The translations under genes and the position numbers were made by a program. A DNA stretch of 64,000 nt, taken from positions 16,779 through 80,778 of the IMG/VR virus record IMGVR_UViG_3300045988_107529; one strand, written 5' to 3'. The notes under the pieces are model-generated. The model saw only the letters and a list, made by a program, of their open reading frames with translations. It searched no databases and was not told the origin of the DNA. How positions within the stretch are numbered: the stretch's first letter is position 1; each line of letters starts with the position of its first letter. Shown here piece by piece: positions 13,628 through 49,047 of this stretch. Origin of the DNA: a virus.

Positions 13628-13700
13628 TGGGCTATCGCCAAACGGTTAAGGCACAGCACTTTGACTGCTATATTTGCTGGTTCGAATCCAGTTAGCCCAG
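13628..13700 (+). tRNA. tRNA-Gln (anticodon TTG)
   Basis: Hand-folded cloverleaf: TGGGCTA/TAGCCCA acceptor, GCC..GGC D-stem, loop CTTTGAC, GCTGG-TTCGAAT-CCAGT T-arm. Very similar to Bacillus tRNA-Gln as I remember it. No encoded CCA. Confidence 0.85.
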
Positions 13701-13850
13701 TTTGCGGTTTTGCTAACGCCGCAAGTTCATTTTATAACACTCTTTTCTGAAATCTAAAAGCGTTTCAGAAAACCTTTGTTGCGGTTGGTGGTCAAGAACT
13801 GCAACAGTGCCGGATTGTTTGTCATGGCGGTCAAATAATTCGGTATCTTA

Positions 13851-13923
13851 GGAAGCTTAGTTCAGCGGTAAGAGCAACGGCCTCATAAGCCGTAAGTCCT
13901 GGGTTCGAATCCCAGAGCTTCCA
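13851..13923 (+). tRNA. tRNA with CAT anticodon (elongator Met or Ile2/lysidine type)
   Basis: GGAAGCT/AGCTTCC acceptor, GTTC..GAGC D-arm, ACGGC-CTCATAA-GCCGT, CTGGG-TTCGAAT-CCCAG. Confidence 0.85.
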
Positions 13924-14216
13924 TTTCTTCTAAATGCCATTCATCCGTAATATGGGTGGAAAAAACTTCCAGTTGAGCGTGTGGATTAGGTAAATTTATA
14001 GGTGCGATACGGCGTAGCCTAAATGGATCTGATTTCCCGGCTGGTATATCTCGGAGTTAAAAACATTAACGCAGCGCACGTTAATAAAAGGAGTTTTCAA
14101 GAGATGCCGTTCAAAGACGCATAAAAATATCCAGTGAATCTACAGCACTAAAACTTGTAGATAGTGGAAAGCATAACACGATAAACCTATTGCTAACCCG
14201 GAAGAACCGGGTTATT

Positions 14217-14285
14217 CGGAAAGTGCAAGTAACTGGGAACGGGCTAGTCGACTAGGTCTTGATGGTTCGAATCCATCCTTTCCGA
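14217..14285 (+). ncRNA. tRNA-like element: acceptor stem plus T-arm, no foldable D/anticodon arms
   Basis: CGGAAAG...GATGG-TTCGAAT-CCATC-CTTTCCG-A. The interior contains only the palindrome CTAGTCGACTAG. 69 nt. Confidence 0.4.
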
Positions 14286-14444
14286 TTGTTTGGAGACTGA
14301 AAGTTTGGTGGTAGGAAAAGCACAGAGCAGTGCGTAGGAATGTATAACCGAGTTCCGAATACGTACTGTTTATCGGTGATATAGTGACTTCCTCTAGTAG
14401 TCAATAAGTGAACGTGCTGAAATGGTTCTTCCAAACATGTACAT

Positions 14445-14516
14445 AGCAGGATAGAGAAGCGGAATCTCGCATGGCTCATATCCATGAAAACGGCGGTTCG
14501 AATCCGTCTCCTGCTA
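14445..14516 (+). tRNA. second tRNA with CAT anticodon
   Basis: AGCAGGA/TCCTGCT acceptor, GAGA-AGCGGAA-TCTC, CATGG-CTCATAT-CCATG, GGCGG-TTCGAAT-CCGTC. Confidence 0.85.
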
Positions 14517-14575
14517 TTCCATCTACCAAGTGTAGATAGGAAATATGACTTTAGCATAGCTATTGTTGGTTTTTA

Positions 14576-14689
14576 GACGAGGCAGCTCAATTGGACAGAG
14601 CAATGAGAATATTAGTCATGTTTGTGACTATAACAGCAATTTACTCCATTACAAGGCATAGGTTGGTGGTTCGAATCCATCCCTCGTCA
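14576..14689 (+). ncRNA. 114-nt aberrant tRNA-like RNA (canonical acceptor, D- and T-arms; anticodon region replaced)
   Basis: GACGAGG/CCTCGTC acceptor, GCTC-AATTGGACA-GAGC D-arm, GGTGG-TTCGAAT-CCATC T-arm. The centre holds hairpin TAGTCA-TGTTTG-TGACTA plus about 34 extra nt. Confidence 0.45.
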
Positions 14690-14690
14690 C

Positions 14691-14781
14691 TGCCCCGGTT
14701 ATCGGTTACGGAAAACCGATTAGAACATGTTTGTGTTCTTCACTGCAAATAATTTTATAGGTTCAAATCCTGTCGGGGCAA
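14691..14781 (+). ncRNA. 91-nt aberrant tRNA-like RNA, tandem to the previous one
   Basis: TGCCCCG/CGGGGCA acceptor, ATCG(GTT)-loop-(AAC)CGAT arm, hairpin AGAACA-TGTTTG-TGTTCT, 17-nt linker, ATAGG-TTCAAAT-CCTGT T-arm. It starts 2 nt after the previous element ends. Confidence 0.45.
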
Positions 14782-14934
14782 TTATGTGATGCTTACAGCA
14801 ATCATTTTGGACATAACTGCTAAATTATGAAACCCAAAAGCATCATGAAATTTATGGGACGCTTACAGCAACTCACTTAAATAAAATCTAATTCGTATAT
14901 TTTATATTTTTTGTGTCCTGAAAGGAGAAGAAAC

Positions 14935-16386
14935 ATGGATTTTGCAAATGCAATGAAGGAAGAAAGCAAGTTTACAAGAACTGAAAACGGAGCAGTTGCG
15001 CTGAATACTACAAGTGATGCAAGACTTGACCTGTTCGGAACTATTGGTGCATTGAGAGAAGCTGATGAAAATAGAATCACCACTTTATTCTCAGAAGCAT
15101 TTGCACAGGATAAACTTTTTGCCACAAAGATTGCTTTTTATGCAAGAGATATTCGTTGTGGGCTTGGAGAGAGAAAAACTTTCCGAACCATTATCCGCTA
15201 CATGGCTGAACATCATCCAGAAGCACTCAGACCGAATCTTGATTTAATTGGAGTATTCGGGAGATACGATGATCTGTATGAACTGATTGAAACACCACTT
15301 GAAGATGACATGTGGAAATCTATGAAGAAACAATTTGAGGAAGATTTGAAAAATCTCAATGATGGAAAAGCAATTTCTTTACTTGCTAAATGGATTAAGA
15401 CTGCTGATGCAAGTAGCAGAGAAACTAGGAAGTTAGGAATCTTGACTGCACAGAAGTTGGGTTATCCAGTCTACAACTTTAAGAGAATTGTTCGTAGCAT
15501 GAGAAAACAGATCGGTGTTGTTGAAAGCCTTATGTCTGCCGGTAAATGGAATGAGATTAAATATCCAGAAGTTCCGAGCCGTGCAATGATGATTTATCGC
15601 AAGGCCTTTGCAAAACATGATCCAGATGGATTTAATGATTTTATTAATAAGGCTGATAAAGGAGAAGTTAAAATCAACGCTTCAACTTTGTATCCTTATG
15701 ACATCGTGGAAAAAATCCTTTACGGAAGAGAAAACAACAAAGTTCTTGAAGCACAGTGGAAAGCACTTCCAGATTATGTTGAACAGGGAACAAACGCACT
15801 CATAATGGCGGACGTATCTGGCTCAATGTATGGAAGACCAATGGCAACATCAATTGGACTAGCTATATATTTTGCCGAGAGAAACACAGGCGCATATCAT
15901 AATCTTTTTATGACTTTCTCGGCAAATCCACAGATTGTTACTTTGAAAGGAGAAACACTTTTTCAAAAGGTGAGAAATGTTAATAAGGCAGACTGGGGAA
16001 TGAATACAAACCTCAAAGCAGCATTCGAGAAAGTTCTTGATATTGCTGAAAAGAACAATATTTCACAAGAACAAATGCCAAAAGCTATCGTTGTAATTTC
16101 CGATATGGAAATTGATCGTTGCGGAAATAAGGACTGGTCTTTTTATGACAAAATGGAAAGTAAGTTTCGCAAAGCCGGATATGTTATTCCAAACATTATT
16201 TTCTGGAATGTCGAAAGCAGACATGATGTATTCCACGCGGACTCTACAAGGAAAGGCGTACAGCTTGCAAGTGGTCAGTCGGTGACAGTGTTCAAACAGG
16301 TGTTACAGAATCTTGGATACAATCCAATTGAAGCTATGGAGAACACGATCAATTCGGAAAGATACAATTGTATTACTGTCGAATGA
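14935..16386 (+). CDS. DUF2828-family protein with C-terminal vWA domain (MIDAS DxSxS)
   Basis: MDFANAMKEESKFTRTENGAVALNTTSDARLDLF... matches the DUF2828 N-terminus from memory. ALIMADVSGSMYGRPMATSIGLAIYFAE is a vWA MIDAS motif. AAAGGAGAAG RBS. Confidence 0.75.
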   Translation: MDFANAMKEESKFTRTENGAVALNTTSDARLDLFGTIGALREADENRITTLFSEAFAQDKLFATKIAFYARDIRCGLGERKTFRTIIRYMAEHHPEALRPNLDLIGVFGRYDDLYELIETPLEDDMWKSMKKQFEEDLKNLNDGKAISLLAKWIKTADASSRETRKLGILTAQKLGYPVYNFKRIVRSMRKQIGVVESLMSAGKWNEIKYPEVPSRAMMIYRKAFAKHDPDGFNDFINKADKGEVKINASTLYPYDIVEKILYGRENNKVLEAQWKALPDYVEQGTNALIMADVSGSMYGRPMATSIGLAIYFAERNTGAYHNLFMTFSANPQIVTLKGETLFQKVRNVNKADWGMNTNLKAAFEKVLDIAEKNNISQEQMPKAIVVISDMEIDRCGNKDWSFYDKMESKFRKAGYVIPNIIFWNVESRHDVFHADSTRKGVQLASGQSVTVFKQVLQNLGYNPIEAMENTINSERYNCITVE

Positions 16387-16446
16387 AACAAAAGTGAAAA
16401 CCATCTCAGTTCCTTTGAAAAGAACTGTCCGTGACAGGCGGCAATA

Positions 16447-16518
16447 TGAAACATAGCTCAGTGGTAGAGCAATGATACTCAATATCATGTGACACAGGTT
16501 CGATTCCTGTTGTTTCTA
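16447..16518 (+). tRNA. tRNA with TCA anticodon (UGA-reading: suppressor / Trp-UCA-like), unusual C33 and T1:T72 mismatch
   Basis: TGAAACA..TGTTTCT acceptor (first pair mismatched), GCTC-AGTGGTA-GAGC, ATGAT-ACTCAAT-ATCAT, ACAGG-TTCGATT-CCTGT. Confidence 0.65.
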
Positions 16519-19176: not shown

Positions 19177-19338
19177 ATGGTATGGTGCGAATTAAGAAAC
19201 ATTCCGTGCATACATCCAGAACCAGATGGATTAGAAAATTGCAGATATTGTGAAAAATATAGTTTTGAAAAATATTTAGAATACAAAAAATCAAAAAGAA
19301 AAGTCAAGAGAGCCAAAAAGGAGCGCCATTATGAGTGA
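19177..19338 (+). CDS. 53-aa Cys-containing basic-tailed protein (not in ORF track)
   Basis: MVWCELRNIPCIHPEPDGLENCRYCEKYSFEKYLEYKKSKRKVKRAKKERHYE. Its 3' end overlaps the rtcB start and contains the left copy of the 14-bp repeat. Confidence 0.45.
   Translation: MVWCELRNIPCIHPEPDGLENCRYCEKYSFEKYLEYKKSKRKVKRAKKERHYE
19302..19315 (+). repeat. left copy of 14-bp direct repeat AGTCAAGAGAGCCA flanking rtcB
   Basis: An identical 14-mer occurs at 20536-20549. Confidence 0.8.
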
Positions 19339-20533
19339 TTTGAAGATATTTACAGAAAAAATCGAGCAAGAAGCATTAAATCAAATTTATACACTAATAA
19401 AACAGCCTGCATTTTCTGAATGTAAAGTACGAATCATGCCAGATGTTCACGCAGGGGCAGGATGTGTAATTGGCTTTACAGCTGATCTTGGAGATAAAGT
19501 AATTCCGAACATTGTTGGAGTAGACATTGGATGCGGAATGCTCACAACACAAATTCCTACTGATGTGGGAACAATAGATTTTAAAATCCTTGACGAAGTG
19601 ATAAGAAATAATGTTCCGGCAGGAAGAAATGTACGTGACGAAATCATAAATTTTAAAGAATTAGAAGAACTTCACTGCTTTTCACTGCTTAAAAATGTTG
19701 AATGGATTCGCAGGAGTCTTGGTACACTTGGGGGAGGAAATCATTTTATTGAAGTTGACACCGATTCAAAAGGCATAAACTACCTTGTAATTCACACTGG
19801 AAGTCGTAACCTTGGAAAACAGGTAGCTGAAATATATCAAAAAATTGCCATAGAAGATATGCAGGGTACAGATAAGCTCGAAACTGAAATACAGAAATTA
19901 GTAAAAGAATACAAGTGCTCTGGCAGGCATAAGGAAATTCAAAATAGTATTGATGAATTAAAACGAAAATGGAAGCCAGACAAACTTGGAATTCCGAAAG
20001 AACTATGTTATTTGACAGGTGAGCATAGAAGACAATATCTGCATGATATGAAAATCTGTCAAGAATTTGCAAGAATAAACAGAAGATGCATACAGTCAGC
20101 TATATTCTACACTATGAATTGGACACTTCAAAGAAACACATGGTTTGACACAATTCATAATTATATTGACCACGATACAAATATTGTTCGGAAAGGTGCG
20201 ATATCAGCTAAACATGGTGAAAAAGTTCTTATCCCTATGAATATGCGAGATGGATGTATTATTGCAATTGGAAAAGGAAATGAGGATTGGAACTGTTCAG
20301 CCCCGCATGGCGCAGGGCGTATTATGAGCCGATCAAAAGCAAAAGAAAACATTTCGTTAGAAGAATTTAAGGAGTCTATGAATGGGATATATACAACATC
20401 CGTTCAGAAATCTACAATTGACGAAAGCCCTATGGCTTACAAACCGCCGCAAGAAATTATTGATAAAATCAAAGATACCGTAGATATAGTTGATATTATT
20501 AAACCTGTATATAATTTCAAAGCAAGTGAATAA
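19331..20533 (+). CDS. rtcB: RtcB RNA 3'-phosphate ligase
   Basis: MPDVHAGAGCVIGF, GGGNHFIE, HTGSRNLG and CSAPHGAGR are the RtcB metal-binding and His-GMP motifs. 400 aa. Confidence 0.9.
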   Translation: MSDLKIFTEKIEQEALNQIYTLIKQPAFSECKVRIMPDVHAGAGCVIGFTADLGDKVIPNIVGVDIGCGMLTTQIPTDVGTIDFKILDEVIRNNVPAGRNVRDEIINFKELEELHCFSLLKNVEWIRRSLGTLGGGNHFIEVDTDSKGINYLVIHTGSRNLGKQVAEIYQKIAIEDMQGTDKLETEIQKLVKEYKCSGRHKEIQNSIDELKRKWKPDKLGIPKELCYLTGEHRRQYLHDMKICQEFARINRRCIQSAIFYTMNWTLQRNTWFDTIHNYIDHDTNIVRKGAISAKHGEKVLIPMNMRDGCIIAIGKGNEDWNCSAPHGAGRIMSRSKAKENISLEEFKESMNGIYTTSVQKSTIDESPMAYKPPQEIIDKIKDTVDIVDIIKPVYNFKASE

Positions 20534-20600: not shown

Positions 20601-22352
20601 ATGTCAAAAATTACAGAAGGTTCGCTCGAATGGTATCGGGCAGTGCTGAATCAAATTATCAGTAGTGATATGACAATCTATCAGAACCAAAAAGATTGCC
20701 TTGATTTGCTCTTGAACATGAATATTGACCTTCCTTTCGACAAGAACCAAGAAGCACGGAAAATGGCCATGAAAGTAAGCCAATACTCACATAACATAGC
20801 AGAGAAGTGTGCTGCATTAACTGGCAGTGGCGATTTTGATGATATCTACTGGCAGTATTTGTTACTGGAAGCACCACATTTGCTGGATTCCTATGCCATG
20901 TATATAGAAAAAGATAGAAAACCAGAAGAACGGTTCTATTTGCCAAGACGCAGAACATTGAAAAAAGTAGTAGATAAATTACAAGCACTTGAAGAAGATG
21001 AACTTGACGAATTGTTTCTGCATCAGCCAGCCAGAACTGGTAAATCACAAATTATTACTGTCGGAACCGCATGGCATTGTGCAAGAAATTCAGAGATAAG
21101 CAACCTCTATGTTACATATAAAGAAGGACTTGGCGGTGCATTCCTAGATGGAGTTACGGAAATATGGACTGACCCAACATATTGCCATGAAGATGTATTT
21201 CATTCAAAAATAGCCAGAACAGATGCAAAGAACCACAAAGTAGACCTTGAAAGAAAGAAAAAATATGCGACATTATCTGGAAAAGGTTTGGAATCTGGTT
21301 TGAACGGTGAGTATGACGCATATGGTTGGCTGATTCTCGATGATATCCTGGAAGGTATTCAAGATGTATTAAATCCAGATATTCTCAGAAGAAAGCAAAT
21401 TGTGTTTGACAACAATGTAATGTCACGAAAGAAAGAACAATGTAAATTGATTCTAAATGGTACTATCTGGTCATTGCATGATTTGTATATGGACAGACTA
21501 TCATTTCTTCAGAATAATCCAGAAGCAAAACACATTAGATATGATGTTCTTAAAATTCCAGCTCTTGACCCGGAAACTGATGAGAGTAATTTTGACTACG
21601 ATTACGGAGTTGGATTCAGTACAAAATATTATCGCACTATTCGTTCTAAATTTGAAGAAAACGATGATATGGCAGGATGGTTAGCCCAGTATCAGCAGGA
21701 ACCTATTGAAAGAGATGGTGCTTTATTTAATGCGCAACATATGAACTTTTATAATGGACAATTGCCAGATGAAGAACCATTGAAAGTAGTTTCAGCTTGC
21801 GATGTGGCTCTTGGCGGTAGTGATTATCTTGCAATGCCAGTAGCATATGTATATGAAGATGGTTCCGTATATATACACGAAGTAGTATTTGATAATTCTG
21901 AAAAGAAATTTACTATGCCAAAAGTCGTATCAGCAATTGTCAATAATAAAGTTACGAATGCTTTTTTTGAAGCCAATGCAGGCGGCGAAGGGTATAAAGA
22001 TGAAGTAGAAGGAAAGTTAAAGGAGCAAGGGTATCAAACTAATCTTACTTCTAAATATGCGCAACAAATGATTTTGAATAATGGTGGACACGCACCTAAA
22101 TCGGCAGTGAGAAAAGAACAGAGAATTTGGGATAATGCTGAAAACATTAGAAAATTTTATTTTCTTGATACTGGATATCAAAACGCAGAGTATAGAAAAT
22201 TTATGAATAATGTCTATTCATTCACAATGACAGGAAAAAATAAGCACGATGACGCACCGGATTCACTCGCTAGTTTAGCAGTATTCTTAAAAAATGGAAG
22301 CGGAGTTGGAACCGCAACAGCAACACAGAATCCACTTTGGGGAAGGAGATAG
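20601..22352 (+). CDS. terL: terminase large subunit
   Basis: Walker A-like QPARTGKSQ, Walker B-like WLILDDILEG, C-terminal nuclease-type HDDAPDSLA. 583 aa, directly upstream of the portal region. Confidence 0.85.
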   Translation: MSKITEGSLEWYRAVLNQIISSDMTIYQNQKDCLDLLLNMNIDLPFDKNQEARKMAMKVSQYSHNIAEKCAALTGSGDFDDIYWQYLLLEAPHLLDSYAMYIEKDRKPEERFYLPRRRTLKKVVDKLQALEEDELDELFLHQPARTGKSQIITVGTAWHCARNSEISNLYVTYKEGLGGAFLDGVTEIWTDPTYCHEDVFHSKIARTDAKNHKVDLERKKKYATLSGKGLESGLNGEYDAYGWLILDDILEGIQDVLNPDILRRKQIVFDNNVMSRKKEQCKLILNGTIWSLHDLYMDRLSFLQNNPEAKHIRYDVLKIPALDPETDESNFDYDYGVGFSTKYYRTIRSKFEENDDMAGWLAQYQQEPIERDGALFNAQHMNFYNGQLPDEEPLKVVSACDVALGGSDYLAMPVAYVYEDGSVYIHEVVFDNSEKKFTMPKVVSAIVNNKVTNAFFEANAGGEGYKDEVEGKLKEQGYQTNLTSKYAQQMILNNGGHAPKSAVRKEQRIWDNAENIRKFYFLDTGYQNAEYRKFMNNVYSFTMTGKNKHDDAPDSLASLAVFLKNGSGVGTATATQNPLWGRR

Positions 22353-22355: not shown

Positions 22356-22778
22356 ATGATGACTGCAACTCAATATTTACGCCAGATTGAAAATTATGAT
22401 AACAGAATCAAAAATAAGCTTATTGAAGAAGAACAGCTCAGTTCTCTTTCCACAAGCGTATCTGCAATTCCTGTTGGAGAAAAGGTACAAACTTCTGTGA
22501 AACGTGATCCGATGGGAGATATGATTGCGAAGATATTTGACCTGCGAGAAGAGATTTCAGAAATGATATCTGAATTTTTACAAAAAAGACAAGAAATAGT
22601 CCGAACTATAGAACAGGTTGAAGATCCATTACTATATGACATATTATTTAAGCACTATGTTGAGTACAAATCTTTGGTTCGCATTGCAGATGAGATGGGT
22701 TATTCAGAGATTCACATTAAAAAAAAGCATTTAAAAGCCATAGCAGAAATAAAAAAGATAAAAGGTTTTGAAAGATGA
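22356..22778 (+). CDS. sigma-70 region-4-like / DUF1492-type putative late transcription regulator
   Basis: Coiled-coil N-half, then C-terminal LLYDILFKHYVEYKSLVRIADEMGYSEIHIKKKHLKAIAEI, which resembles a sigma region-4 HTH. Its stop overlaps conserved box A. Confidence 0.45.
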   Translation: MMTATQYLRQIENYDNRIKNKLIEEEQLSSLSTSVSAIPVGEKVQTSVKRDPMGDMIAKIFDLREEISEMISEFLQKRQEIVRTIEQVEDPLLYDILFKHYVEYKSLVRIADEMGYSEIHIKKKHLKAIAEIKKIKGFER

Positions 22779-22801
22779 TACCGAAGTATACTGAATGATA
22801 C
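22777..22801 (+). promoter_or_regulatory. conserved 25-nt box, copy A
   Basis: GATACCGAAGTATACTGAATGATAC, then TAAAAT/TATAAA, then the terminator at 22830-22858. Confidence 0.6.
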
Positions 22802-22829
22802 CGCCAATATGTGTAAAATATAAAGTAGA

Positions 22830-22858
22830 GCATTGGATTAAAATATCCAGTGCTTTTT
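22830..22858 (+). terminator. intrinsic terminator after box A
   Basis: GCATTGGAT-taaaat-ATCCAGTGC followed by TTTTT. Confidence 0.7.
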
Positions 22859-22872
22859 ATTTTGCAGAAAGG

Positions 22873-24369
22873 ATGGTTCGACTTGTGAGAAATACAATGA
22901 ATTTTGTAGATTTATGCCGAGGTGAGTTCGGGCGAAAAGTAGCCTACACAGGCGTTGACCGAATCACTCCACAAAATGTAGTAAAAGTAGTTTCAGATAC
23001 AATTGGCATACATAATAGAAACCGAACATTGATTGATTACTTGTATCGGTACATGAAAGGCGATCAGCCGATATTATACCGAAACAAAATAGTCCGTCCA
23101 GAAGTTAATAACAGAGTGGTTGAAAATCACGCATTTGAAACTGTAAAATTTAAAGCTGGACAGATTTGTGGGGAACCAATCCAATATGTATGCAAAAAGA
23201 AAAAAGCAGATAAAAAAATAAATGAGCAAGTTGACCTTCTGAATGATTATCTGGATGAAGCCAATGCAGATGCAAGAAACATCCAAAGGGCAATATACCA
23301 AAGTGCAACAGGAACTTCTTATAAGGCTATTCTGAAAGAAGAGGACTGGACAAAAAACGGAGATTTACCACCGTTTAGAATCTTCATTCCGTATCCAGGT
23401 GATTGTTACATTGTATACTCACAGAGAAATGGGAAACCAATGCTTTCCGTGCAGATTTTAAAAGATGAAGATGAACAGCAATATTATTTATGTTATTCAA
23501 AGAACCAGTTTTTTGAAATCAAGAATGGAAAAGTAACTAACTACGGCATCAATGGTTTTGGCGGGATTCCAATTGTTGAATGTCCAAATAATCACGACAG
23601 ACTTTCAGATGTTGAAATTGCAATCACCTTATTTGATGCAATTAACAAATACCAGTCCGATAGATTAAATGGCGTGGAACAGTTTGTGCAAGCCTTTATG
23701 AAGTTTAAGAACTGTGAGGTAGACGAAAACGAGTTTTTGAAAATGGTAAAACTTGGTGCTATCTCTGTTAAAGATACTGGAAATGGCTGTCAGTCGGATG
23801 TTGAACTGATGACCGCTGAACTGAATCAATCAGAGAGCCAGGTTGCAAAGGATGATATCTACAATAATATGCTGATTGTGGAAGCAATGCCAAACCGCCA
23901 AAGCAATAGCGGAGGTGATACAGGAAATGCCGTATACCTTCGTAATGGATGGGACTTCGCAGAAAGAGATGCGAAATTGGTAGAAGCATTCACCAAGGAA
24001 GCCGAAAAGGAATCTGCTAGAATTATTCTGAATATTATCCGTGGCACGTCAAATGATGTTAATATCTCAACCCGAGATTTTGATGTAAAGATAACCAGAA
24101 ACCCAACAGACAATATGCTTGTAAAAGCACAGGCACTTGATTATCTGTTTAAAAATAAAATTCATCCGCTTATTGCATTGATTACTTGTGGGCTTTTCAG
24201 TGATCCGCAGAAAGTCTACGAAATGAGTTTACCGTATCTGGGAACTATTTACCCGGAACTGGCAGACCCGGAAGCGGAAATGCAGAAAGCACAGCAATTA
24301 CTTGACGGAAAGTTTCAAAATCCGTCCAAAACAGAACCAATGGCAAATTCTCCATCTAACGAAGAATGA
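22873..24369 (+). CDS. portal protein (start uncertain, 22873 or 22897)
   Basis: About 490-500 aa, positioned after TerL. LIDYLYRYMKGDQPILYRNK and overall size and position support the call. The track start at 22795 would run through box A and the terminator. Confidence 0.7.
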   Translation: MVRLVRNTMNFVDLCRGEFGRKVAYTGVDRITPQNVVKVVSDTIGIHNRNRTLIDYLYRYMKGDQPILYRNKIVRPEVNNRVVENHAFETVKFKAGQICGEPIQYVCKKKKADKKINEQVDLLNDYLDEANADARNIQRAIYQSATGTSYKAILKEEDWTKNGDLPPFRIFIPYPGDCYIVYSQRNGKPMLSVQILKDEDEQQYYLCYSKNQFFEIKNGKVTNYGINGFGGIPIVECPNNHDRLSDVEIAITLFDAINKYQSDRLNGVEQFVQAFMKFKNCEVDENEFLKMVKLGAISVKDTGNGCQSDVELMTAELNQSESQVAKDDIYNNMLIVEAMPNRQSNSGGDTGNAVYLRNGWDFAERDAKLVEAFTKEAEKESARIILNIIRGTSNDVNISTRDFDVKITRNPTDNMLVKAQALDYLFKNKIHPLIALITCGLFSDPQKVYEMSLPYLGTIYPELADPEAEMQKAQQLLDGKFQNPSKTEPMANSPSNEE

Positions 24370-27575: not shown

Positions 27576-27815
27576 ATGGATGATTATAAAGACTTTTCGG
27601 AAGATGAAAGAATCTTCTATTTGCGTGAAGCTGGATTTGATTCCAGAGAAAAGGAGTTATTCCGATTGCGTGTTTATGAAGAAAAAACGCTTGCAGAAGC
27701 TTCAGAAATCATGGGCTACAGCACGAGAACCGTAGACCGCATAAACAGAAAATTAAAGAAGAAAATTATGAAAGTTGCCCCGATGTATTGTCGGGGCTTT
27801 TCTTTGTATTCATAA
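27576..27815 (+). CDS. small sigma-70 region-4 / LuxR-type HTH protein
   Basis: REKELFRLRVYEEKTLAEASEIMGYSTRTVDRINRKLKKKI. Confidence 0.55.
   Translation: MDDYKDFSEDERIFYLREAGFDSREKELFRLRVYEEKTLAEASEIMGYSTRTVDRINRKLKKKIMKVAPMYCRGFSLYS
27777..27806 (+). terminator. intrinsic terminator
   Basis: GCCCCGA-tgtattg-TCGGGGC followed by TTTTCTTT. Confidence 0.65.
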
Positions 27816-27819
27816 AATG

Positions 27820-27875
27820 TGGCGTATTTATGGCGTTATCATGGCGTGTTAATCAACCTCTTATTATTGTAAAAT
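27820..27875 (+). promoter_or_regulatory. three 11-bp-phased TGGCGT repeats plus extended -10
   Basis: TGGCGT at 27820, 27831 and 27842, then TGTAAAAT (27868-27875). There is no recognisable -35. Confidence 0.55.
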
Positions 27876-27905
27876 ATAGTTATAAAAACAAGGGAGGTTT
27901 GAGAT

Positions 27906-28403
27906 ATGCAGTATGGTAATCCGTATTTTGCGCAACCATTTCAACAAATACAGCCGTATCAAGATAGATTAGCACAATTGCAGAATAGTTATCAGCAGGC
28001 AATGCCATACGGACAGGCACAGATTCAGCAACCAATACAACAAATGCCACAAGTACCACAAATCCCCATGTTGCAAGGACAGATGGTTGATGGCATTGAT
28101 ACTGTAAAGGCAAAAGATGTAGATATGTCCGGTAATCCTGTTTATTATCCAAAAACAGATGGAACAGAAATATATAGAAAACAATTACAGGCAGATGGAA
28201 GAAGTAGAATTTTTGTTTATCGACTTATAAATCCGGAAGAACAACAGCAACCAAAGGCAGAAGAAAAACCGATTGACATAGAAGCTATGTTTAATCAGCT
28301 TCGGAACGATGTTTGTTCTGAGATTTCCGAAATAAAGAGTATGTTCCCGACATTTATATCGGGAACACCGGAGCCCAAGCAGAATGGAGGTAAACAGAGA
28401 TGA
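27906..28403 (+). CDS. Q/P-rich low-complexity protein
   Basis: MQYGNPYFAQPFQQIQPYQDRLAQLQNSYQQAMPYGQAQIQQPIQQMPQVPQIPMLQGQ..., with AGGGAGG RBS. Confidence 0.55.
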   Translation: MQYGNPYFAQPFQQIQPYQDRLAQLQNSYQQAMPYGQAQIQQPIQQMPQVPQIPMLQGQMVDGIDTVKAKDVDMSGNPVYYPKTDGTEIYRKQLQADGRSRIFVYRLINPEEQQQPKAEEKPIDIEAMFNQLRNDVCSEISEIKSMFPTFISGTPEPKQNGGKQR

Positions 28404-28639
28404 TGAATCCAATGCAACTTATGCAGATGATACGTGGTGGAGGGAATCCTCAACAAGCCATAATCAATATGATGAAACAACAGTCTGGAAATAATCCTGT
28501 AATTGACAATGCAATTAACATGATGGAAAAAGGTGATAATGCAGGAATTGAAAAACTTGCAAGAAATCTTTGTAAAGAAAGAAATATTAATCCAGACGAT
28601 ATACTGTCGCAGGTTAAGAACCAGTTTGGAATAAAATAA
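28400..28639 (+). CDS. M/Q/N-rich small protein
   Basis: MMNPMQLMQMIRGGGNPQQAIINMMKQQSGNN..., coupled to the upstream gene. Confidence 0.5.
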   Translation: MMNPMQLMQMIRGGGNPQQAIINMMKQQSGNNPVIDNAINMMEKGDNAGIEKLARNLCKERNINPDDILSQVKNQFGIK

Positions 28640-28716
28640 ATTCGCTACAATAATTAAAAGAGCCGCGGTCTTTTGATTTTGTATAAATTACAAAAATCAA
28701 TAAGGAGGTAATCGCT

Positions 28717-29517
28717 ATGATGAATGGTGGATTATCAGCAAGCGATGTCGCTGTATTAAGCGGCTCTAATAACCGTGCAGATGAAGGCTATGGCTTTGGC
28801 GGTGGCTGGGCATGGTGGATTATAATATTGCTTATCTTTGGCTGGGGCGGTTTCGGCGGCTTTGGCGGCTGGGGTGGCAATGGTGGAAACGGTACAAATG
28901 GTGCAGGTTTCCAAGGATGGGCTACCCGTTCAGATATTAATGAGGAATTCGCCCTTAATGATATTCAGAATGGTATCAGAGGTATTCAGCAGGGTATCTG
29001 TGACAGCACATATTCTCTTAACAATACCATGCAGAGTGGCTTTAATGGTATGAATGTCGGAATGCTTCAAGGCTTCAACGGCGTTCAGCAGGCAATCAAT
29101 GCTGATACTGTAGCCGGTATGCAGAATACCAACGCATTACAGTCTCAGTTAGCAAACTGTTGCTGTGAAACAAGAGAAGCAATCCAAGGTATCAACTACA
29201 ACCTTGCTACCAACACTTGTGCTCTCCAGAACACAATGAATAACAACACCAGAGACCTTCTGGAAAACCAGAACAGCAACACAAGAGCAATCCTTGACTT
29301 CCTGACTAACGATAAGATTGCAACATTACAGGCAGAGAACTCTGATCTGAAACGTGCTGCATCCCAGGATCGCCAGTCTGCATTGCTTACAACAGAGATG
29401 TACGCACAGGCTCAGAGATTAATCAATGCAATCAACCCGGCTCCGATTCCTGCATTCCAGGTTCCAGCTCCATATGCATACGCAGGATGTAATACATATG
29501 GTAACGGTTGTTGCTAA
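28717..29517 (+). CDS. G/W-rich membrane-anchored, Q/N-rich, Cys-tailed protein
   Basis: GYGFGGGWAWWIIILLIFGWGGFGGFGGWGGNGGNG (YjcZ-like N-terminus), a long N/Q/M-rich region, CCCE, and the C-terminus AGCNTYGNGCC. Confidence 0.55.
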   Translation: MMNGGLSASDVAVLSGSNNRADEGYGFGGGWAWWIIILLIFGWGGFGGFGGWGGNGGNGTNGAGFQGWATRSDINEEFALNDIQNGIRGIQQGICDSTYSLNNTMQSGFNGMNVGMLQGFNGVQQAINADTVAGMQNTNALQSQLANCCCETREAIQGINYNLATNTCALQNTMNNNTRDLLENQNSNTRAILDFLTNDKIATLQAENSDLKRAASQDRQSALLTTEMYAQAQRLINAINPAPIPAFQVPAPYAYAGCNTYGNGCC

Positions 29518-29548
29518 GTAACTCACCCTTAGAGGTTGACTAAATTCT

Positions 29549-29579
29549 AAGAGGTGGGTTGCGGCTCACCTCTTATTTT
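29549..29579 (+). terminator. intrinsic terminator
   Basis: AAGAGGTG-ggttgcggct-CACCTCTT followed by ATTTT. Confidence 0.6.
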
Positions 29580-29596
29580 GATTGAGAGGTAGAAAT

Positions 29597-30022
29597 ATGA
29601 GTTGTAAAAATGTTTGTAAGCTCTGCAACCGTCTTGTAATAAGCCAAGCTGTTGCGTTTACAGGAGGTAATCTTGTAATCACGCTCCCAGAAGGCAGTTA
29701 CAACAATGGAGAGAAATATTGTATTGTTGTTGCACAAAGTATACCAGAAGCCACTACAATTACTGCTCCGGTAATGATTCAGATAGGAACAGGAACAACT
29801 TTGTATCCGCTAGAAAATCGTTGCTGTGCACAGATTACGGCTTGTGGAATAAGAACCAGAACGAAGTACGCAACCAGAGTAGCTACAAGTGCAACTGGCG
29901 GAGTATTCAAGATGTTAGGAAATCCGGCTTGTAGTCCGAGCAACAACTTGAAAGCAATTAATGGTACAGCCCCAACGACAGAAGCACCTGTTACGCAGGC
30001 TGTTAGAAAGGGGGCACTGTAA
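29597..30022 (+). CDS. Cys-containing hypothetical protein
   Basis: MSCKNVCKLCNRLVISQAV...RCCAQITACG...ACSPS, with GAGAGGT RBS. Confidence 0.5.
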   Translation: MSCKNVCKLCNRLVISQAVAFTGGNLVITLPEGSYNNGEKYCIVVAQSIPEATTITAPVMIQIGTGTTLYPLENRCCAQITACGIRTRTKYATRVATSATGGVFKMLGNPACSPSNNLKAINGTAPTTEAPVTQAVRKGAL

Positions 30023-30654
30023 TGCATAAAGTTGCAATGGAAATGGGAAAATGGGCTATGGAAAAAGCCAAAACACATGGCTTTGATAATCTTAGTGCTC
30101 AAGACTGGGACGATTTGAAAGACTGCATGGAAGCAGTAAAATGTGCGATTTGCGCTGATAAAGATTATCGTATTGTGGAAGCTATGGATGAATGCGAACA
30201 GGAAGAAAAGTATCTTGGACGCATGGGATATGACCGTTACCGCTATTCAAATGGGCGTTTCGCTCCAAAAGGTAGGGGAACCAGAAAAGGCTATAGACCG
30301 TATCTGTATATGCAGGATGATGACTGGATGGATGAGTATTTAAACAATCCAGAATTTGAGCGCAATATGTACCGCATGGGATATCATCCAGATCGTAGTG
30401 ATATGGAAAATGATGGTATGAATATGAATTGGAAGAAGTCCAGATACGGAGAATCTTATGATAAATACGATGAGAATCGTAGGCACTATCATGATTCCAA
30501 AGACACGGAATCTAAAAGAAAAATGGATGATTCCATGAAGGAGTACACATCTGATATTATCCGTAATCTCACGGAAATGTGGTCTGATGCAGATGCAACG
30601 CTCAGACAGTCAATGAAAACTGACCTGACCAGACTTGTACAGCAGATGAACTAG
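30022..30654 (+). CDS. charged D/E/R/Y/M-rich hypothetical protein
   Basis: 210 aa with GRMGYDRYRYSNGRFAPKGRGTRKGYRPYLYMQDDDWMDEY. Confidence 0.5.
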   Translation: MHKVAMEMGKWAMEKAKTHGFDNLSAQDWDDLKDCMEAVKCAICADKDYRIVEAMDECEQEEKYLGRMGYDRYRYSNGRFAPKGRGTRKGYRPYLYMQDDDWMDEYLNNPEFERNMYRMGYHPDRSDMENDGMNMNWKKSRYGESYDKYDENRRHYHDSKDTESKRKMDDSMKEYTSDIIRNLTEMWSDADATLRQSMKTDLTRLVQQMN

Positions 30655-30670
30655 AGCAATAAATGAATTA

Positions 30671-30706
30671 AGCCCTTGTCGCAAATTAATGCGGCAGGGG
30701 CTTTTT
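30671..30706 (+). terminator. intrinsic terminator
   Basis: GCCCTTGTCGC...GCGGCAGGGGC followed by TTTTT. Confidence 0.6.
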
Positions 30707-30729
30707 CGTAGAAAGGATGGTGATAAACC

Positions 30730-31113
30730 ATGCTACGACAATTCTACATGAATGGAGATATATGGAGAGTGCAGTTTGTTCCATCACAAGATGATGTTTT
30801 AATTGACCGCACAGGAAACAGAACACTTGGAGTATCGGATTATTCCACCCATATTATTTCGATTGCGAACAACCTACATGGAGAACTTTTGAACCGTGTA
30901 TTTATCCATGAATTAGGACATTGCGTAATGTTCAGCTATGGTTTACTGTCAGAGCTTCACCGTATGGTTAAGAAACGATATTGGGTGGATGCAGAGGAAT
31001 GGTGTTGCAATTTCATCTCAGATTATTCTGGAATAATCATAGTTACATCAAAAGATATTTTGGGAAATAGTTTTTCCCTAGTCATGCCACGAACTTTTGA
31101 ATTAATTGCATGA
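30730..31113 (+). CDS. HExxH zinc metallopeptidase (ImmA/IrrE-like size and motif)
   Basis: VFIHELGHCVMFSYG, 127 aa. Confidence 0.5.
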   Translation: MLRQFYMNGDIWRVQFVPSQDDVLIDRTGNRTLGVSDYSTHIISIANNLHGELLNRVFIHELGHCVMFSYGLLSELHRMVKKRYWVDAEEWCCNFISDYSGIIIVTSKDILGNSFSLVMPRTFELIA

Positions 31114-31317
31114 TTTTTCCTTGAATACAATCTGATATCCAATAATATCCAGAATTTCCTCTACTTCATTATAAGTAAAAGTTTCCTTCCTGAAACGATT
31201 ACTAAAATTTTGAAAAGACAAATTTGTTCCATGTCTGCGGTTTAATTCGTTATTGACTTGACTCATAGTAAACCCTTGTGCAACTATAAGCCCCTTTAAT
31301 TTATATTTAAAGCTCAT
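31102..31317 (-). CDS. XRE-family HTH protein
   Basis: LKGLIVAQGFTMSQVNNELNRRHGTNLSFQNFSNRF...EVEEILDIIGY. It converges on and overlaps the peptidase gene by 12 nt. Confidence 0.6.
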   Translation of the reverse strand: MSFKYKLKGLIVAQGFTMSQVNNELNRRHGTNLSFQNFSNRFRKETFTYNEVEEILDIIGYQIVFKEKSCN

Positions 31318-31387
31318 TGTTTAATGCTCCTTTATTTATAAATAAATTATATCATTTTAATCGTAAACTGTAAAGTTTAAATATATG

Positions 31388-31416
31388 TTGAAAAATATAA
31401 CAAATAAATGTATAAT
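31388..31416 (+). promoter_or_regulatory. consensus-like promoter
   Basis: TTGAAA-17 nt-TATAAT. Confidence 0.6.
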
Positions 31417-31460
31417 TAAATTATAAGATTTAATTCATGTGATTAACGGAGGCAATGAAA

Positions 31461-32288
31461 ATGAATTTAGAAGGGCAACGTTTTGGTAAACTTGTTGTTA
31501 TAAAAAAGGGAGAAACGCGTGTAACTAAAGGCGGGTGCAAGACAAGAACTTGGATATGCCGGTGCGATTGCGGAAGAGAGTTAATCATTCCCACAGGACA
31601 TTTGAGATCAGGAAATACAAAAAGTTGTGGATGTTTGAGAGGAATAGATATTACAGGACAAAAATTTGGAAAGCTTACGGCAATAAAGAGAACTAAAAAA
31701 AGGGACAAAACTGGAAATATATATTGGTATTGCGAATGCGAATGCGGAGGAAATATCATAACGCAAGGCAGAAATCTTAGAAAAGGACTTGTTTCTTCTT
31801 GCGGTTGCGTTCAAAAAGAAAATGCAAGAAAAATGAATTTTAAACATGGCATGTCGAGGGGAAGAATATATGAAATTTTATGTGCTATGAAATCGAGATG
31901 CTATTGTAAAAATGACGAGAATTATAAAAGATACGGAGAAAGAGGAATTGAAATATGTGATGAATGGAGAAATGAAAATGGATTTAAAAATTTTTACGAA
32001 TGGTCAATAGCAAATGGGTATCAGAATAATTTAACTATTGATAGAATAGATGTAGACGGTAATTATTGCCCAGAAAATTGCCGATGGGTAACACAGAAAC
32101 AGCAAATGCAAAACACAAGGAGAAACAGATACATAAATTATGAAGGAAAAATATATTCTATTTCAGAGCTTTCTGAGAAACTAAATCTGACTTATATGCA
32201 AACATGGCACAAATTTAGAAATGTAAGTTTTGGAATGGATGAATTAAGTGAGAAAGAAAGAAGAAATCATGCAAAAGATAATAAATAA
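31461..32288 (+). CDS. HNH-type homing endonuclease with repeated Zn-knuckle modules
   Basis: Two GQ(R/K)FGKL...W.C.C(D/E)CG modules, then LTIDRIDVDGNYCPENCRWVTQKQQMQN, an HNH_3-like motif. Confidence 0.65.
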   Translation: MNLEGQRFGKLVVIKKGETRVTKGGCKTRTWICRCDCGRELIIPTGHLRSGNTKSCGCLRGIDITGQKFGKLTAIKRTKKRDKTGNIYWYCECECGGNIITQGRNLRKGLVSSCGCVQKENARKMNFKHGMSRGRIYEILCAMKSRCYCKNDENYKRYGERGIEICDEWRNENGFKNFYEWSIANGYQNNLTIDRIDVDGNYCPENCRWVTQKQQMQNTRRNRYINYEGKIYSISELSEKLNLTYMQTWHKFRNVSFGMDELSEKERRNHAKDNK

Positions 32289-32324
32289 ATATGTAGCCCC
32301 TGTTGGAGCAGAAAGGATGATTGC

Positions 32325-32642
32325 ATGAGAGTATTAAGATTTATTGTAAATAATCAAAGAATTTATCCAGATCCCAAGTGTGATTTCTCTGGGCTGGTAA
32401 AGGGCACGACTGGATATCTTAAAGCATTGTTTATCTTTTCTCAAGAGTGGAACGGATGTAAAATAGCTGCTTCATTTTGGAGAATGGAAAAAGAATACCC
32501 AGTAATACTAAAAAACAATCAATGTGAAATTCCGAAGGAAGCCTTAACTTGGGATTATTTTTCTGTATCTGCGACTGGCGTAAAAGATAACGGAAAATAC
32601 ATTATAACTACTGGTAAAACTAAAGTATCACAGAGGGGGTAG
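32325..32642 (+). CDS. BppU-N-like small structural protein
   Basis: 105 aa. YLKALFIFSQEWNGCKIAASFW...YFSVSATG resembles DUF2479/BppU N-domain strands. Confidence 0.35.
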   Translation: MRVLRFIVNNQRIYPDPKCDFSGLVKGTTGYLKALFIFSQEWNGCKIAASFWRMEKEYPVILKNNQCEIPKEALTWDYFSVSATGVKDNGKYIITTGKTKVSQRG

Positions 32643-32645
32643 AAC

Positions 32646-34844: not shown

Positions 34845-34892
34845 CTAAAGAGGGCTTTAGTTAAGCAACCAAATTTAAGAAAGAGAGGAAAT

Positions 34893-35285
34893 ATGAGAGG
34901 ATTAGTCCGTCAAAAGCAAAAAGTATATTGGTCACGAATAACAGAAAAAACAGAAGGATTAGACCGTATTAAAGTTTATGAGAAACCAGTTCTGTTCTCT
35001 TTTTCTGTATCATCTACAGCCGGAACGCCAGAAGAAATCGCAGCCGGAATAGTGCCAGATTATGATAGGTACATTACAAGCTTTAATCGAAATTTTCATC
35101 CACAGGAAGCGGACATATTTTGGGTAGACAGAATCCCACAAATAAGCGAGGATGGAAGCCTTATTTTGGACGAAAATGGAGAACCCACAGTATTGCCAGA
35201 CTACACACTAAAGAAGATTTTAGACACACAAAAAGGCAATATTGCCACATACGGAATTTCTAAAAGAGGAAACGAAGATGGGTAA
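34893..35285 (+). CDS. putative head-tail joining protein
   Basis: 130 aa. Called by position upstream of the tail genes only. Confidence 0.35.
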   Translation: MRGLVRQKQKVYWSRITEKTEGLDRIKVYEKPVLFSFSVSSTAGTPEEIAAGIVPDYDRYITSFNRNFHPQEADIFWVDRIPQISEDGSLILDENGEPTVLPDYTLKKILDTQKGNIATYGISKRGNEDG

Positions 35286-35796
35286 GACAATAAAATGCGA
35301 CTTATCCACGAAATCTATTCAAAATGCCATCAACAAATTAAAAGTTTACCAAAATGAGCTACAGAGGAAAAATGAGATTTTTGTAAAACGATTGGCTGAA
35401 ATCGGGTTGGATGTTATTCAAACGACCATGGAGTCAATCCCGGATGAAGAAAAAGGTTCTTACTATACAGAAATCATCAACGATCAAAACGGAAATATCG
35501 TCGGGGCTTCTGTTAGACTATCTGGTGAAAAAGTGTTGTTCATTGAATTTTCAGCAGGAATAACATACGGTACAAATGATTATCCTTTATCTAGTGGAAA
35601 TTCTTACGGAATGGGAACATATCCTTCCAAAAAAGAAAAATCAGACTGGGACAATCCAAACGGATGGTGGTACACAGATGAAAGTGGACGTCCGCACCAT
35701 TCATATGGAAATAGAGCGTATATGCCTATGTATCACGCAGAACAAGCCATTATTATTGCCGTTCGTAAAATTGCCAAAGAGGTGTTCTCTTCTTAA
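35278..35796 (+). CDS. putative neck/head-tail protein
   Basis: Start at MGKTIKCDLS, overlapping the upstream stop. Called by position only. Confidence 0.35.
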   Translation: MGKTIKCDLSTKSIQNAINKLKVYQNELQRKNEIFVKRLAEIGLDVIQTTMESIPDEEKGSYYTEIINDQNGNIVGASVRLSGEKVLFIEFSAGITYGTNDYPLSSGNSYGMGTYPSKKEKSDWDNPNGWWYTDESGRPHHSYGNRAYMPMYHAEQAIIIAVRKIAKEVFSS

Positions 35797-35800
35797 AGAA

Positions 35801-35825
35801 GATACCATAATATACTGAATGATAC
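35801..35825 (+). promoter_or_regulatory. conserved 25-nt box, copy B
   Basis: GATACCATAATATACTGAATGATAC, then TGTTATCAT (extended -10, 35836-35844), then a terminator. Confidence 0.6.
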
Positions 35826-35872
35826 TAAACAATTATGTTATCATTACAGTGTTAAATTGTAGCATAACATGC

Positions 35873-35907
35873 AATGCGTTCACTATAAAGGTGAGTGCAT
35901 TTTTTTA
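35873..35907 (+). terminator. intrinsic terminator after box B
   Basis: AATGCGTTCAC-tataaag-GTGAGTGCATT followed by TTTTTT. Confidence 0.7.
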
Positions 35908-36328: not shown

Positions 36329-36380
36329 GAGCAGAAATGCTTCTATTTTTTTATCCAAAAATATGAAAGGAGAATGCCGA

Positions 36381-36593: not shown

Positions 36594-36668
36594 AAAGGCG
36601 GTGATCCGCTATCTCCCGGCACAGGGTTACGTGCATAAAACTTGAATTAAAGAAAGGAGCCTATCAAA

Positions 36669-38048: not shown

Positions 38049-38074
38049 CACTCTTGTCTGCCCTTTATTTTTTT
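38031..38074 (+). terminator. intrinsic terminator between chaperone and tape measure genes
   Basis: AAGGGCAG...CTGCCCTT followed by TATTTTTTT. Confidence 0.55.
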
Positions 38075-43392: not shown

Positions 43393-43504
43393 TAATTGGT
43401 AAAATCAGTGGGCTAGGGTAGCTCCCGAAAGTCTCACCTCCGAGAGATTGCCTACTGTTTTTATATTATCGGAGAAGTTTTTAGATATACGGAGGTTATC
43501 TAGC

Positions 43505-49028: not shown

Positions 49029-49047
49029 AGAAAGAGAGGTGATATAA

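Follow-up and report, generated by a model that had tools for sequence, protein, structure and literature searches.

A three-copy phased-repeat box as the putative late operator of an LtrB-family regulator, with terminators in the late leaders, in a human-gut phage

We analysed a 64,000-nt stretch of viral DNA (positions 16,779 to 80,778 of IMG/VR record IMGVR_UViG_3300045988_107529; the window, below) in which a 25-nt box occurs three times, each copy being followed by promoter elements and a predicted intrinsic terminator at the head of a block of late structural genes. The boxes are probably DNA operators of a 140-amino-acid (aa) protein of the DUF1492/LtrB family, whose gene (ltr) runs into the first copy, and each box would form a cognate late operator/promoter cassette with the elements behind it. 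The regulator/operator system as such is known already (LtrB), and the window holds a multi-copy variant of it; the use of three cassettes instead of one late promoter, and the position of a terminator downstream of the promoter, appear not to have been described. The gene and the boxes are placed as follows.

22356-22778, plus strand: ltr gene, encoding the 140-aa DUF1492 (LtrB-family) late transcriptional regulator (assigned from Pfam PF07374, phrog_36 and an AlphaFold2 model); its stop codon overlaps box A
22777-22801, plus strand: box A, three 10-bp-phased direct repeats (GATACCGAAG TATACTGAAT GATAC); 41 distinct variants after ltr in relatives
35801-35825, plus strand: box B; 26 distinct variants in relatives; a cognate AATCATAT box at the orthologous junction of the lineage with a 51%-identical Ltr
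50776-50800, plus strand: box C; 15 distinct variants in relatives

The pattern GATACC-N4-TATACTGAATGATAC matched the window at these three sites only, all on the plus strand (A, GATACCGAAGTATACTGAATGATAC at 22777; B, GATACCATAATATACTGAATGATAC at 35801; C, GATACCAAAGTATACTGAATGATAC at 50776). These are the exact positions listed in an earlier reading that was made from the letters of the stretch without database searches (the sequence-only reading), and no other site appeared when up to three mismatches were allowed. In 100 dinucleotide-preserving shuffles of the window the box was not matched once, and its occurrence by chance is excluded. A motif search, which that reading had suggested, was carried out with a weight matrix made from 82 box variants from relatives; across the 64 kb it gave the three boxes alone as high scorers (41.7-43.8 bits), the next best position scoring -4.5 bits.

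The box is made up of three tandem 10-bp units (GATACCnnnn, TATACTGAAT and GATACYnnnn), with their ATAC cores spaced exactly one helical turn (10 bp) apart. The phased pattern ATAC-N6-ATAC-N6-ATAC, with one mismatch allowed, is found in the window at boxes A-C only, against an expectation of 0.23 matches. No extra or weaker box emerged in the window from the three-mismatch search, the ATAC-phased pattern or the weight-matrix scan. Each copy starts at or just after the stop codon of the preceding open reading frame (ORF), as had been noticed before: the TGA of the upstream ORF overlaps box A (22776-22778) and box C (50774-50776), and the TAA upstream of box B ends 4 nt before the box.

The phage is a member of a very common human-gut lineage, with 80 IMG/VR loci encoding the same protein at 96% identity or more. 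From these loci, and from box-pattern matches listed in IMG/VR (about half of the matches listed in the exact-pattern scans being chance), we collected cassettes at the same junctions in relatives, comprising at least 41 distinct A-type, at least 26 B-type and at least 15 C-type sequences. The sequence-only reading had pointed to the equivalent junctions of related phages as decisive for its proposal, and boxes are present at all three. The relatives' boxes show no change in the ATAC cores or in the TACTGAA centre; the N4 segment and the spacer between box and TATG are variable.

Beyond these close relatives, the box follows the protein. In a lineage with a 70%-identical Ltr, three perfect GATAC units are followed by a consensus TATAAT and a counterpart of the first leader terminator that keeps its structure and differs in sequence. 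In the lineage with a 51%-identical Ltr, the recognition helix is a different one (IQHIRSCHLKAIEAVRK vs EIHIKKKHLKAIAEIKK), and ltr is followed by AATCATATGGAATCATAT, which is built of AATCATAT repeats, then by TATAAT and then by a terminator. The phages of this lineage have a second copy of the new box (on one contig the two occur together, L236 and L258), and the second site again consists of box, extended -10 (TGATATACT) and terminator. Comparison by tblastx placed it between homologues of 34875-35799 and 35924-36600, which is the box B junction; an equivalent of box C in this lineage was not found among the matches listed. Two operators have thus switched together with the regulator, and nothing else in this analysis speaks as strongly for the boxes as Ltr binding sites. 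More distant homologues have other repeats with a 10-11-bp phase in the same place, for example TGAGCAC, TTGCAAC, TTGGCATGC, ATGTCC and TGATAGTTTA. A search of the genome collection with an eight-sequence alignment returned nine loci. Distant homologues L082-L085, L210 and L213 occupy the canonical ltr position, which closes the replication module and comes just before terS or the first packaging gene.

Some relatives carry cassettes in other arrangements. In L110 (approximately 1420-1560) and L177, an A-type box, promoter and terminator stand in another upstream context and are linked to C-like sequence; C-type cassettes are found ahead of two or more different genes; and L164 (7776-7900) has a B-like box and promoter without a recognisable terminator. 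By comparison of these sequences, the cassettes recombine among relatives.

The 140-aa protein matched PF07374 (DUF1492) with 23.7 bits (cut-off 21.5, E = 5.4e-5) and phrog_36 'transcriptional regulator' with 1.7e-18, and 43 of its 69 homologues also match DUF1492. The sequence-only reading had described copy A as lying right after a sigma-region-4-like gene at 22356-22778, which holds, the Pfam family giving the more precise description. The AlphaFold2 model (predicted local distance difference test score, pLDDT, of 86.8) comprises two long helices (residues 4-36 and 52-86) and a three-helix helix-turn-helix (HTH) domain at residues 91-136 (helices 91-102, 107-114 and 118-136). Foldseek against the PDB matched sigma region-4 domains only (SigF, SigR, SigD and SigE; TM-scores of 0.7-0.8, normalised to the target) and gave no full-length match, and a sequence search of solved structures with the protein returned nothing relevant.

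DUF1492 proteins are the LtrB family of late transcriptional regulators, beside RinA, ArpU, LtrA (Sigma70_r4) and LtrC (Quiles-Puchalt 2013, PMC3753634), in the Ltr superfamily of Gram-positive phages (Ferrer 2011, PMC3152322; PMC3753634; Phi13 Ltr 2026, PMC13123087). Apart from Ltr proteins, no phage factor is needed to turn on terS and the late operon; these proteins have been shown experimentally to be DNA-binding activators whose targets are direct repeats situated immediately after the regulator's gene, and these repeats, read by the C-terminal region, are necessary and sufficient for specificity (PMC3753634). The window has much in common with this scheme: a small DUF1492 (LtrB) protein with a C-terminal region-4-like HTH, a first box that begins inside the ltr stop codon, phased repeats apparently specific to the cognate protein, a sigma-A 'TATA box' downstream, and a terminator in the intergenic stretch from ltr to the first late gene. 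By analogy with the published family, Ltr would bind the boxes and activate the promoters behind them.

The predicted promoter elements are these.

22808-22819, plus strand: -16/-10 region of promoter A, TATGTG + TAAAAT (22814-22819); predicted start at about 22825-22827; TAAAAT, TAGAAT or TATAAT in relatives
35834-35844, plus strand: -16/-10 region of promoter B, TATG-T-TATCAT (35839-35844); predicted start at about 35849-35851
50809-50819, plus strand: -16/-10 region of promoter C, TATG-T-TATACT (50814-50819); predicted start at about 50824-50828

The TATGT begins 6 nt (A) or 8 nt (B and C) after the last base of the box, and the -10 hexamer begins 12 nt (A) or 13 nt (B and C) after it; the TATGT and -10 noticed in the sequence-only reading are present, slightly closer to the box than the 9-11 nt given there. 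Promoters B and C fit the Gram-positive extended -10 consensus TRTGnTATAAT exactly (TATG-T plus hexamer), and in promoter A a TGTG abuts the hexamer directly. A sigma-70 promoter scan listed no -35 element for any of the three cassettes. Set beside the described Ltr sites, the repeats of this phage are 10-bp-phased and occupy about -50 to -26 relative to the predicted starts (about -49 to -25 at promoter A).

Across dozens of orthologues, positions 3-5 of the -10 hexamer vary (TATAAT, TATGAT, TATCAT, TATACT, TAAAAT, TAGAAT), T1, A2 and T6 are invariant, and the upstream TRTG is kept. At promoter B position 4 alone varies among relatives (TATCAT, TATGAT, TATAAT), relatives of promoter C have TATGYTATAAT, TATGAT or TATACT, and the sole outlier at position 5, TATATT, comes from the terminator-less L164 cassette. 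This substitution pattern is the signature expected of a working sigma-A -10, and the predicted -10 elements are of the host sigma-A type.

Downstream of each -10 lies a hairpin with a T-run, as follows.

22827-22863, plus strand: leader terminator A, 12-bp hairpin (22827-22856) and T-run; portal start codon 21 nt on; leader fold -17.1 kcal/mol, z -3.6
35873-35907, plus strand: leader terminator B, 12-bp hairpin (35873-35901) and T7; start codon about 16 nt on; leader fold -15.0, z -1.1
50844-50879, plus strand: leader terminator C, 13-bp hairpin (50844-50873) and T6; leader fold -25.2 kcal/mol, z -4.8

These bear out the earlier observation of a strong hairpin and T-run in each leader, through which transcription would have to read. 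The hairpin of terminator B is present in both the minimum-energy and the centroid fold, although the z-score of its leader is just -1.1; the pairing survives across 14 variants of this terminator, in which a G-C pair is once exchanged for A-U by a double change and G-U/A-U switches occur several times, and this lends modest support to selection on its structure. Predicted start A is the first base of its hairpin; starts B and C precede their hairpins by about 20 nt. Beyond generic promoter and terminator features, the Ltr box is the only element common to the three cassettes. No Rfam family matched at the leaders, and no alternative (antiterminator) leader fold was evident: the box and -10 can pair in B, and an internal palindrome is present in A and C, neither being common to all copies.

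From the T-run to the next start codon there are 16-27 nt at all three cassettes, with the ribosome site among them. A further promoter could not be accommodated beyond the terminator, so that Ltr-started transcription into the late blocks would have to cross it; judged by sequence, any transcript that enters the portal, tail or distal-tail block has to pass a strong predicted intrinsic terminator. The first genes behind the terminators are listed here.

22885-24369, plus strand: portal gene, first of late block A (SPP1_portal, 1.1e-71)
35924-36328, plus strand: first gene of late block B, encoding a 134-aa protein; tail module, ahead of the major tail protein gene
50906-51271, plus strand: first gene of late block C (phrog_1194, function unknown), followed by the gene for a 1520-aa tail protein (51275-55837)

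The sequence-only reading had set the boxes before portal, tail-completion and distal-tail genes. The portal gene is borne out by its family match, and the 'tail-completion' label of 35924-36328 follows from position only, the protein having no family match. That reading had also taken copies B and C to restart transcription after inserted cargo, and we likewise find the boxes ahead of structural blocks separated by variable cargo, structural genes and cargo being interleaved between the cassettes. The distance from A to B is 13.0 kb here versus 9.2-9.6 kb in several relatives, so the cargo varies while the cassettes stay.

The order of elements was compared across 22 LtrB lineages, comprising gut Heliusvirales-type, Streptococcus, Erysipelothrix, Gardnerella, Terrisporobacter and Fusobacterium phages and prophages in metagenome-assembled genomes; the experimentally tested LtrB locus, that of Streptococcus suis, lies outside these 22. 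Seventeen of the 22 share one order, in which direct repeats in phase at the stop codon are followed by an (extended) -10, an intrinsic terminator and the ribosome site of the first late gene. Predicted leader terminators are a reproducible, family-wide feature. The same order is found between rinA and terS of Staphylococcus phage 80alpha (L333, 2221-2408), where TGGCAGT repeats right after rinA are followed by a promoter-like site (candidate promoter TTGATA-18-GATAGT / TATGATAGT) and by a terminator (2336-2365), just beyond which, 23 bp ahead of terS, lies the 5' end that has been published. Two papers on the superfamily deduced a terminator in the ltr-terS region from the loss of Pcad read-through and assumed that it precedes the promoter (PMC3152322, PMC3753634), unlike the arrangement in the window, where it lies downstream of the -10.

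A second Ltr-like unit in the window follows the classical order.

27576-27815: gene for a 79-aa Sigma70_r4 protein, second Ltr-like unit; a terminator hairpin lies inside its 3' end (27777-27797)

The stop codon of this gene is followed at once by ATGGCGT, present three times as a direct repeat at a spacing of 11 bp (27820-27847, the only such site in the window), then by TG + TAAAAT at 27868-27875, and the next gene begins at 27906. The 79-aa gene and this layout are kept in the 70% and 51% lineages, with GGCGAAA-type repeats. The unit looks like an LtrA-type regulator with the order terminator, repeats, promoter. Because its terminator precedes the repeats and the promoter, the reversed order at the GATAC boxes is not the default packing of this genome.

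One leader terminator recurs in another setting. A near-identical hairpin, GAGCCTTGTGGG...CCCGCAGGGCTTTTyTTATGCCC, stands before an HNH gene in Streptococcus, Erysipelothrix, Terrisporobacter and gut Clostridia phages.

L082 20484-20520, L083 9993-10030, L210 3012-3050 and L213 3009-3045; also L335, L336 and L339: near-identical HNH-gene leader terminator

The Ltr proteins of these phages are just 30-60% identical (approximate values) and their repeats differ. Besides terminating, this hairpin may have another role, for instance within a cos/HNH packaging module.

In the mechanism that we propose, Ltr would combine a coiled helical hairpin with a sigma-region-4-like HTH and would sit, probably as an oligomer, on the three ATAC-core repeats one turn apart. 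Bound Ltr would make up for the missing -35 at a host sigma-A promoter whose extended -10 is good, and the three cassettes would start the portal/head, tail and distal-tail blocks, which variable cargo separates. The leader terminators would block read-through from upstream early or cargo genes. Finally, a polymerase initiating at an Ltr-occupied promoter might become terminator-resistant, as with lambda Q, Q21 and AlpA, whereas a polymerase arriving from upstream would not. This last step, Ltr-coupled, Q-like antitermination, is a hypothesis to which we give a little less than an even chance. It is favoured by the cost of the alternative (discussed below), by the conserved order of elements, and by the complete block of Pcad in published constructs, in which, without Ltr, Pcad read-through was fully blocked in the ltr-terS intergenic regions (PMC3753634).

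The cassettes resemble the late regions of lambdoid phages with Q (Q-lambda, Q21 and Q82; PR', tR') in having a DNA element at the late promoter, a short leader, an intrinsic terminator and late structural genes, with the regulator gene immediately upstream. Q21 also uses a direct-repeat DNA element. The 140-aa protein matched phrog_79 'Q-like' with 1.2e-5, over residues 80-133 only. Unlike in the Q systems, the box lies upstream of the -10, over the -35 region; the promoter appears to be activator-dependent, whereas PR' is constitutive; there are three copies; and terminated RNAs would be just 35-57 nt or so in length. AlpA is a small HTH protein, unrelated to Q, that loads at a promoter-adjacent DNA element and makes RNA polymerase resistant to terminators. 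It sets a precedent for a non-Q fold with Q-like function, and it differs from Ltr in fold and host phylum; AlpA of Pseudomonas aeruginosa has been named an antiterminator (PMC9998450). A further comparison is Alt of Lactococcus phage TP901-1, which, as cited in PMC3152322 and PMC13123087, binds direct repeats (-76 to -32) upstream of P-late, a promoter without a good -35. In those citing accounts, Alt shares with Ltr the scheme of a phage activator and direct repeats upstream of a late promoter without a -35; it belongs to a different protein family and has a single promoter, upstream of terS, and the same accounts describe no leader terminator for P-late.

In phages phi11 and 80alpha, the 5'-triphosphate end mapped for RinA-dependent transcripts lies 23 bp upstream of terS, downstream of the terminator, and the RinA-binding sequences are more than 155 bp away from it, a distance that the authors called a puzzle (PMC3152322). 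LtrB, and by extension the RinA/ArpU/Ltr superfamily, might be promoter-loaded antiterminators, that is, functional analogues of lambda Q derived from a sigma-region-4-like fold; we regard this generalisation as speculative, and on balance doubtful. If it were true, promoter-loaded antitermination would explain the RinA puzzle of binding so far upstream of the 5' end with a terminator in between. No paper proposing antitermination by Ltr, RinA or ArpU was found in the searchable literature.

A number of points weigh against the picture drawn here. Homology to Q is not confirmed: the match to PF06530 (Phage_antitermQ) reached 19.8 bits, below the cut-off of 26, and covers the HTH only, three of the 69 homologues match that family, and no Q structure was among the top 50 PDB matches listed by Foldseek. 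Five of the 22 lineages (Javan288, SVep1, IPP16, L340 and L344) and the relative cassette L164 have no leader terminator, so it is not indispensable. Start sites and terminator efficiency are predictions from sequence, and these predicted-only transcripts, together with the missing Q homology and the five terminator-less lineages, weaken coupled antitermination in particular. The RinA 5'-triphosphate end beyond the terminator favours action at a distance in that phage. The ltr gene lies between terL (20601-22352) and the SPP1-type portal gene (22885-24369), and not upstream of terS or HNH as in the described Ltr phages, for which one late promoter is reported in place of three cassettes. Lastly, -10-like hexamers are present early in the transcribed stretch, in the hairpin loop for A (TAAAAT), at about +10 for B (TAGCAT) and at +2 for C (CATAAT); as pause-like elements they do not go beyond chance, which in DNA this rich in A and T should give a TAnnnT in about 20 nt.

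The account that survives best beside coupled antitermination keeps the Ltr cassettes and dispenses with the antitermination: the leader terminators would be leaky attenuators and insulators that halt most read-through from upstream together with a fixed share of the transcripts begun under Ltr; a strong activated promoter would compensate, and the 5' hairpin may stabilise the mRNA. We consider this quite possible, if short of probable. The terminators are generic, with no sequence common to A, B and C, they are missing from the five lineages and the one relative cassette named above, and the hairpin begins at +1 in cassette A and in the 70% lineage. In Bacillus mRNA decay, a hairpin at +1 protects against 5' exonuclease. 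Yet on this account most activated transcription would be wasted at three essential operons, although 17 of the 22 diverged lineages retain the arrangement; the hairpins have long stems of 12-13 bp and good T-runs; the Pcad block in published ltr-terS constructs is complete, so that late transcripts crossing the same terminator need help; and the same phage uses the ordinary terminator-then-promoter order at 27777-27875.

Other intergenic terminators lie within the late blocks, at 24388, 29548, 36326 and 38030. They look like ordinary attenuators, as leaky attenuation would have it; we considered them as proof of processive antitermination and found them not decisive, since ordinary attenuators they can be. 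The terminator after the portal gene is apparently absent from the 70% lineage, where the portal gene and the next gene overlap in the gene table.

It is improbable that the box is a distant activating site, as proposed for RinA, with the true start after the terminator, the -10 incidental and the terminator merely closing the upstream operon. The phi11/80alpha 5' end, with the terminator between it and the RinA-binding sequences, would fit such an arrangement, and A/T-rich TAnnnT matches do occur inside or after the T-runs. However, in the 16-27 nt from T-run to start codon a start would fall on or after the ribosome site, and the TRTG and -10 at 12-13 nt after the box are kept, with sigma-A-like substitutions, in paralogues, orthologues and distant lineages.

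The sequence-only reading had proposed late promoters recognised by a phage-encoded sigma-like factor. Its tie between these promoters and the gene at 22356-22778 stands; that the protein is a bona fide alternative sigma factor, with the box as its -35 element, is highly improbable. The weak, sub-threshold Sigma70_r4 matches, the Foldseek matches to the region-4 domains of SigF, SigR, SigD and SigE, and one source that calls a homologue a 'specialized sigma subunit' would fit a sigma factor. The model, with two long helices and a three-helix HTH only, has no region-2-like domain, however; the box is 25 bp of three phased repeats and not a 6-bp -35; the -10 is of the host extended type (TRTGnTATAAT); and the family to which the protein belongs has been shown by experiment to work as DNA-binding activators (PMC3753634).

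We regard as similarly improbable a reading in which the repeats play no part in regulation and are mainly boundaries at which gene cassettes recombine or move, with cargo associated with homing endonucleases close by. The cassettes do flank variable cargo, with the A-B distances given above and three HNH genes in the cargo; the genes joined to one cassette type differ both upstream and downstream, and relatives contain an apparent A/C hybrid. Such boundaries would not account for why the cassettes keep one orientation and stand directly before essential structural genes, nor for the -10, the terminator and the co-variation with Ltr, and recombination at repeats of about 100 bp is better seen as a by-product. 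Least probable of all is the sequence-only reading's own alternative, that the box acts as RNA in a nut- or put-like manner and lets upstream transcripts pass the terminator: the box does overlap the end of the upstream ORF, would thus be transcribed by read-through and stands 25-45 nt ahead of the terminator, but it lies upstream of the predicted start, the three copies share no RNA structure and no Rfam match, the 10-bp ATAC phasing is a DNA-face signature, other lineages replace the box with unrelated direct repeats that track the Ltr protein, and the conserved -10 would be left unexplained.

Ltr-family regulators turn on packaging, virion and lysis genes in many Firmicutes phages, including those that mobilise staphylococcal pathogenicity islands, and, as seen here, they are also present in very common human-gut phages. 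As a simple repeat, phased and co-varying, the operator is readable from sequence, which makes late regulons annotatable in uncultured phage genomes, and the GATAC and AATCATAT types offer portable orthogonal promoter/regulator pairs. Several cassettes per genome would keep the structural operons tightly timed while cargo insertions between them are tolerated. Should Ltr couple initiation to terminator resistance, it would be a Gram-positive counterpart to lambda Q, and published RinA/Ltr reporter data would be read differently.

Two cargo islands lie in the structural region, at 27576-35796 and 42970-50776, and hold the following genes.

31455-32288, 42970-43392 and 50359-50655: HNH endonucleases
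43448-44581: replication-initiator/DnaD-like gene
46230-48125: Ig-domain protein
48162-48893, minus strand: a gene that adjoins a perfect TTGACA-17-TATAAT promoter (48984-49012)
49374-50135: anti-repressor

An Rfam int-alpA RNA motif (42919-42991, plus strand; 45.4 bits vs 35.8) lies at a cargo border; the tape-measure gene comes just before it, and the HNH ORF 42970-43392 starts within it. At 38030-38066, between the tail-chaperone ORF and the tape-measure ATG at 38099, there is a very strong predicted intrinsic terminator (15-bp stem with seven G-C pairs, T7), which is either an attenuator for tape-measure dosage or a site needing antitermination.

A tRNA cluster occupies 13628-16518 and comprises Gln-TTG, two Met-CAT and a 72-nt tRNA with anticodon TCA (16447-16518; SeC according to ARAGORN). 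The last of these may act as an opal (UGA) suppressor; under code 11 the large late ORFs are intact, and no recoding is evident. Directly upstream of the terminase-large-like gene, 19331-20533 encodes an RtcB RNA ligase (1.2e-62), which acts on 2',3'-cyclic-phosphate and 5'-OH ends; the pairing of RtcB and terminase-large genes is kept in the 51% lineage (L089), and, given the tRNA cluster, RtcB may be related to tRNA repair. On the minus strand, 61002-61189 is a full-length match to the Rfam FuFi-1 RNA (136.9 bits, gathering threshold 59.6).

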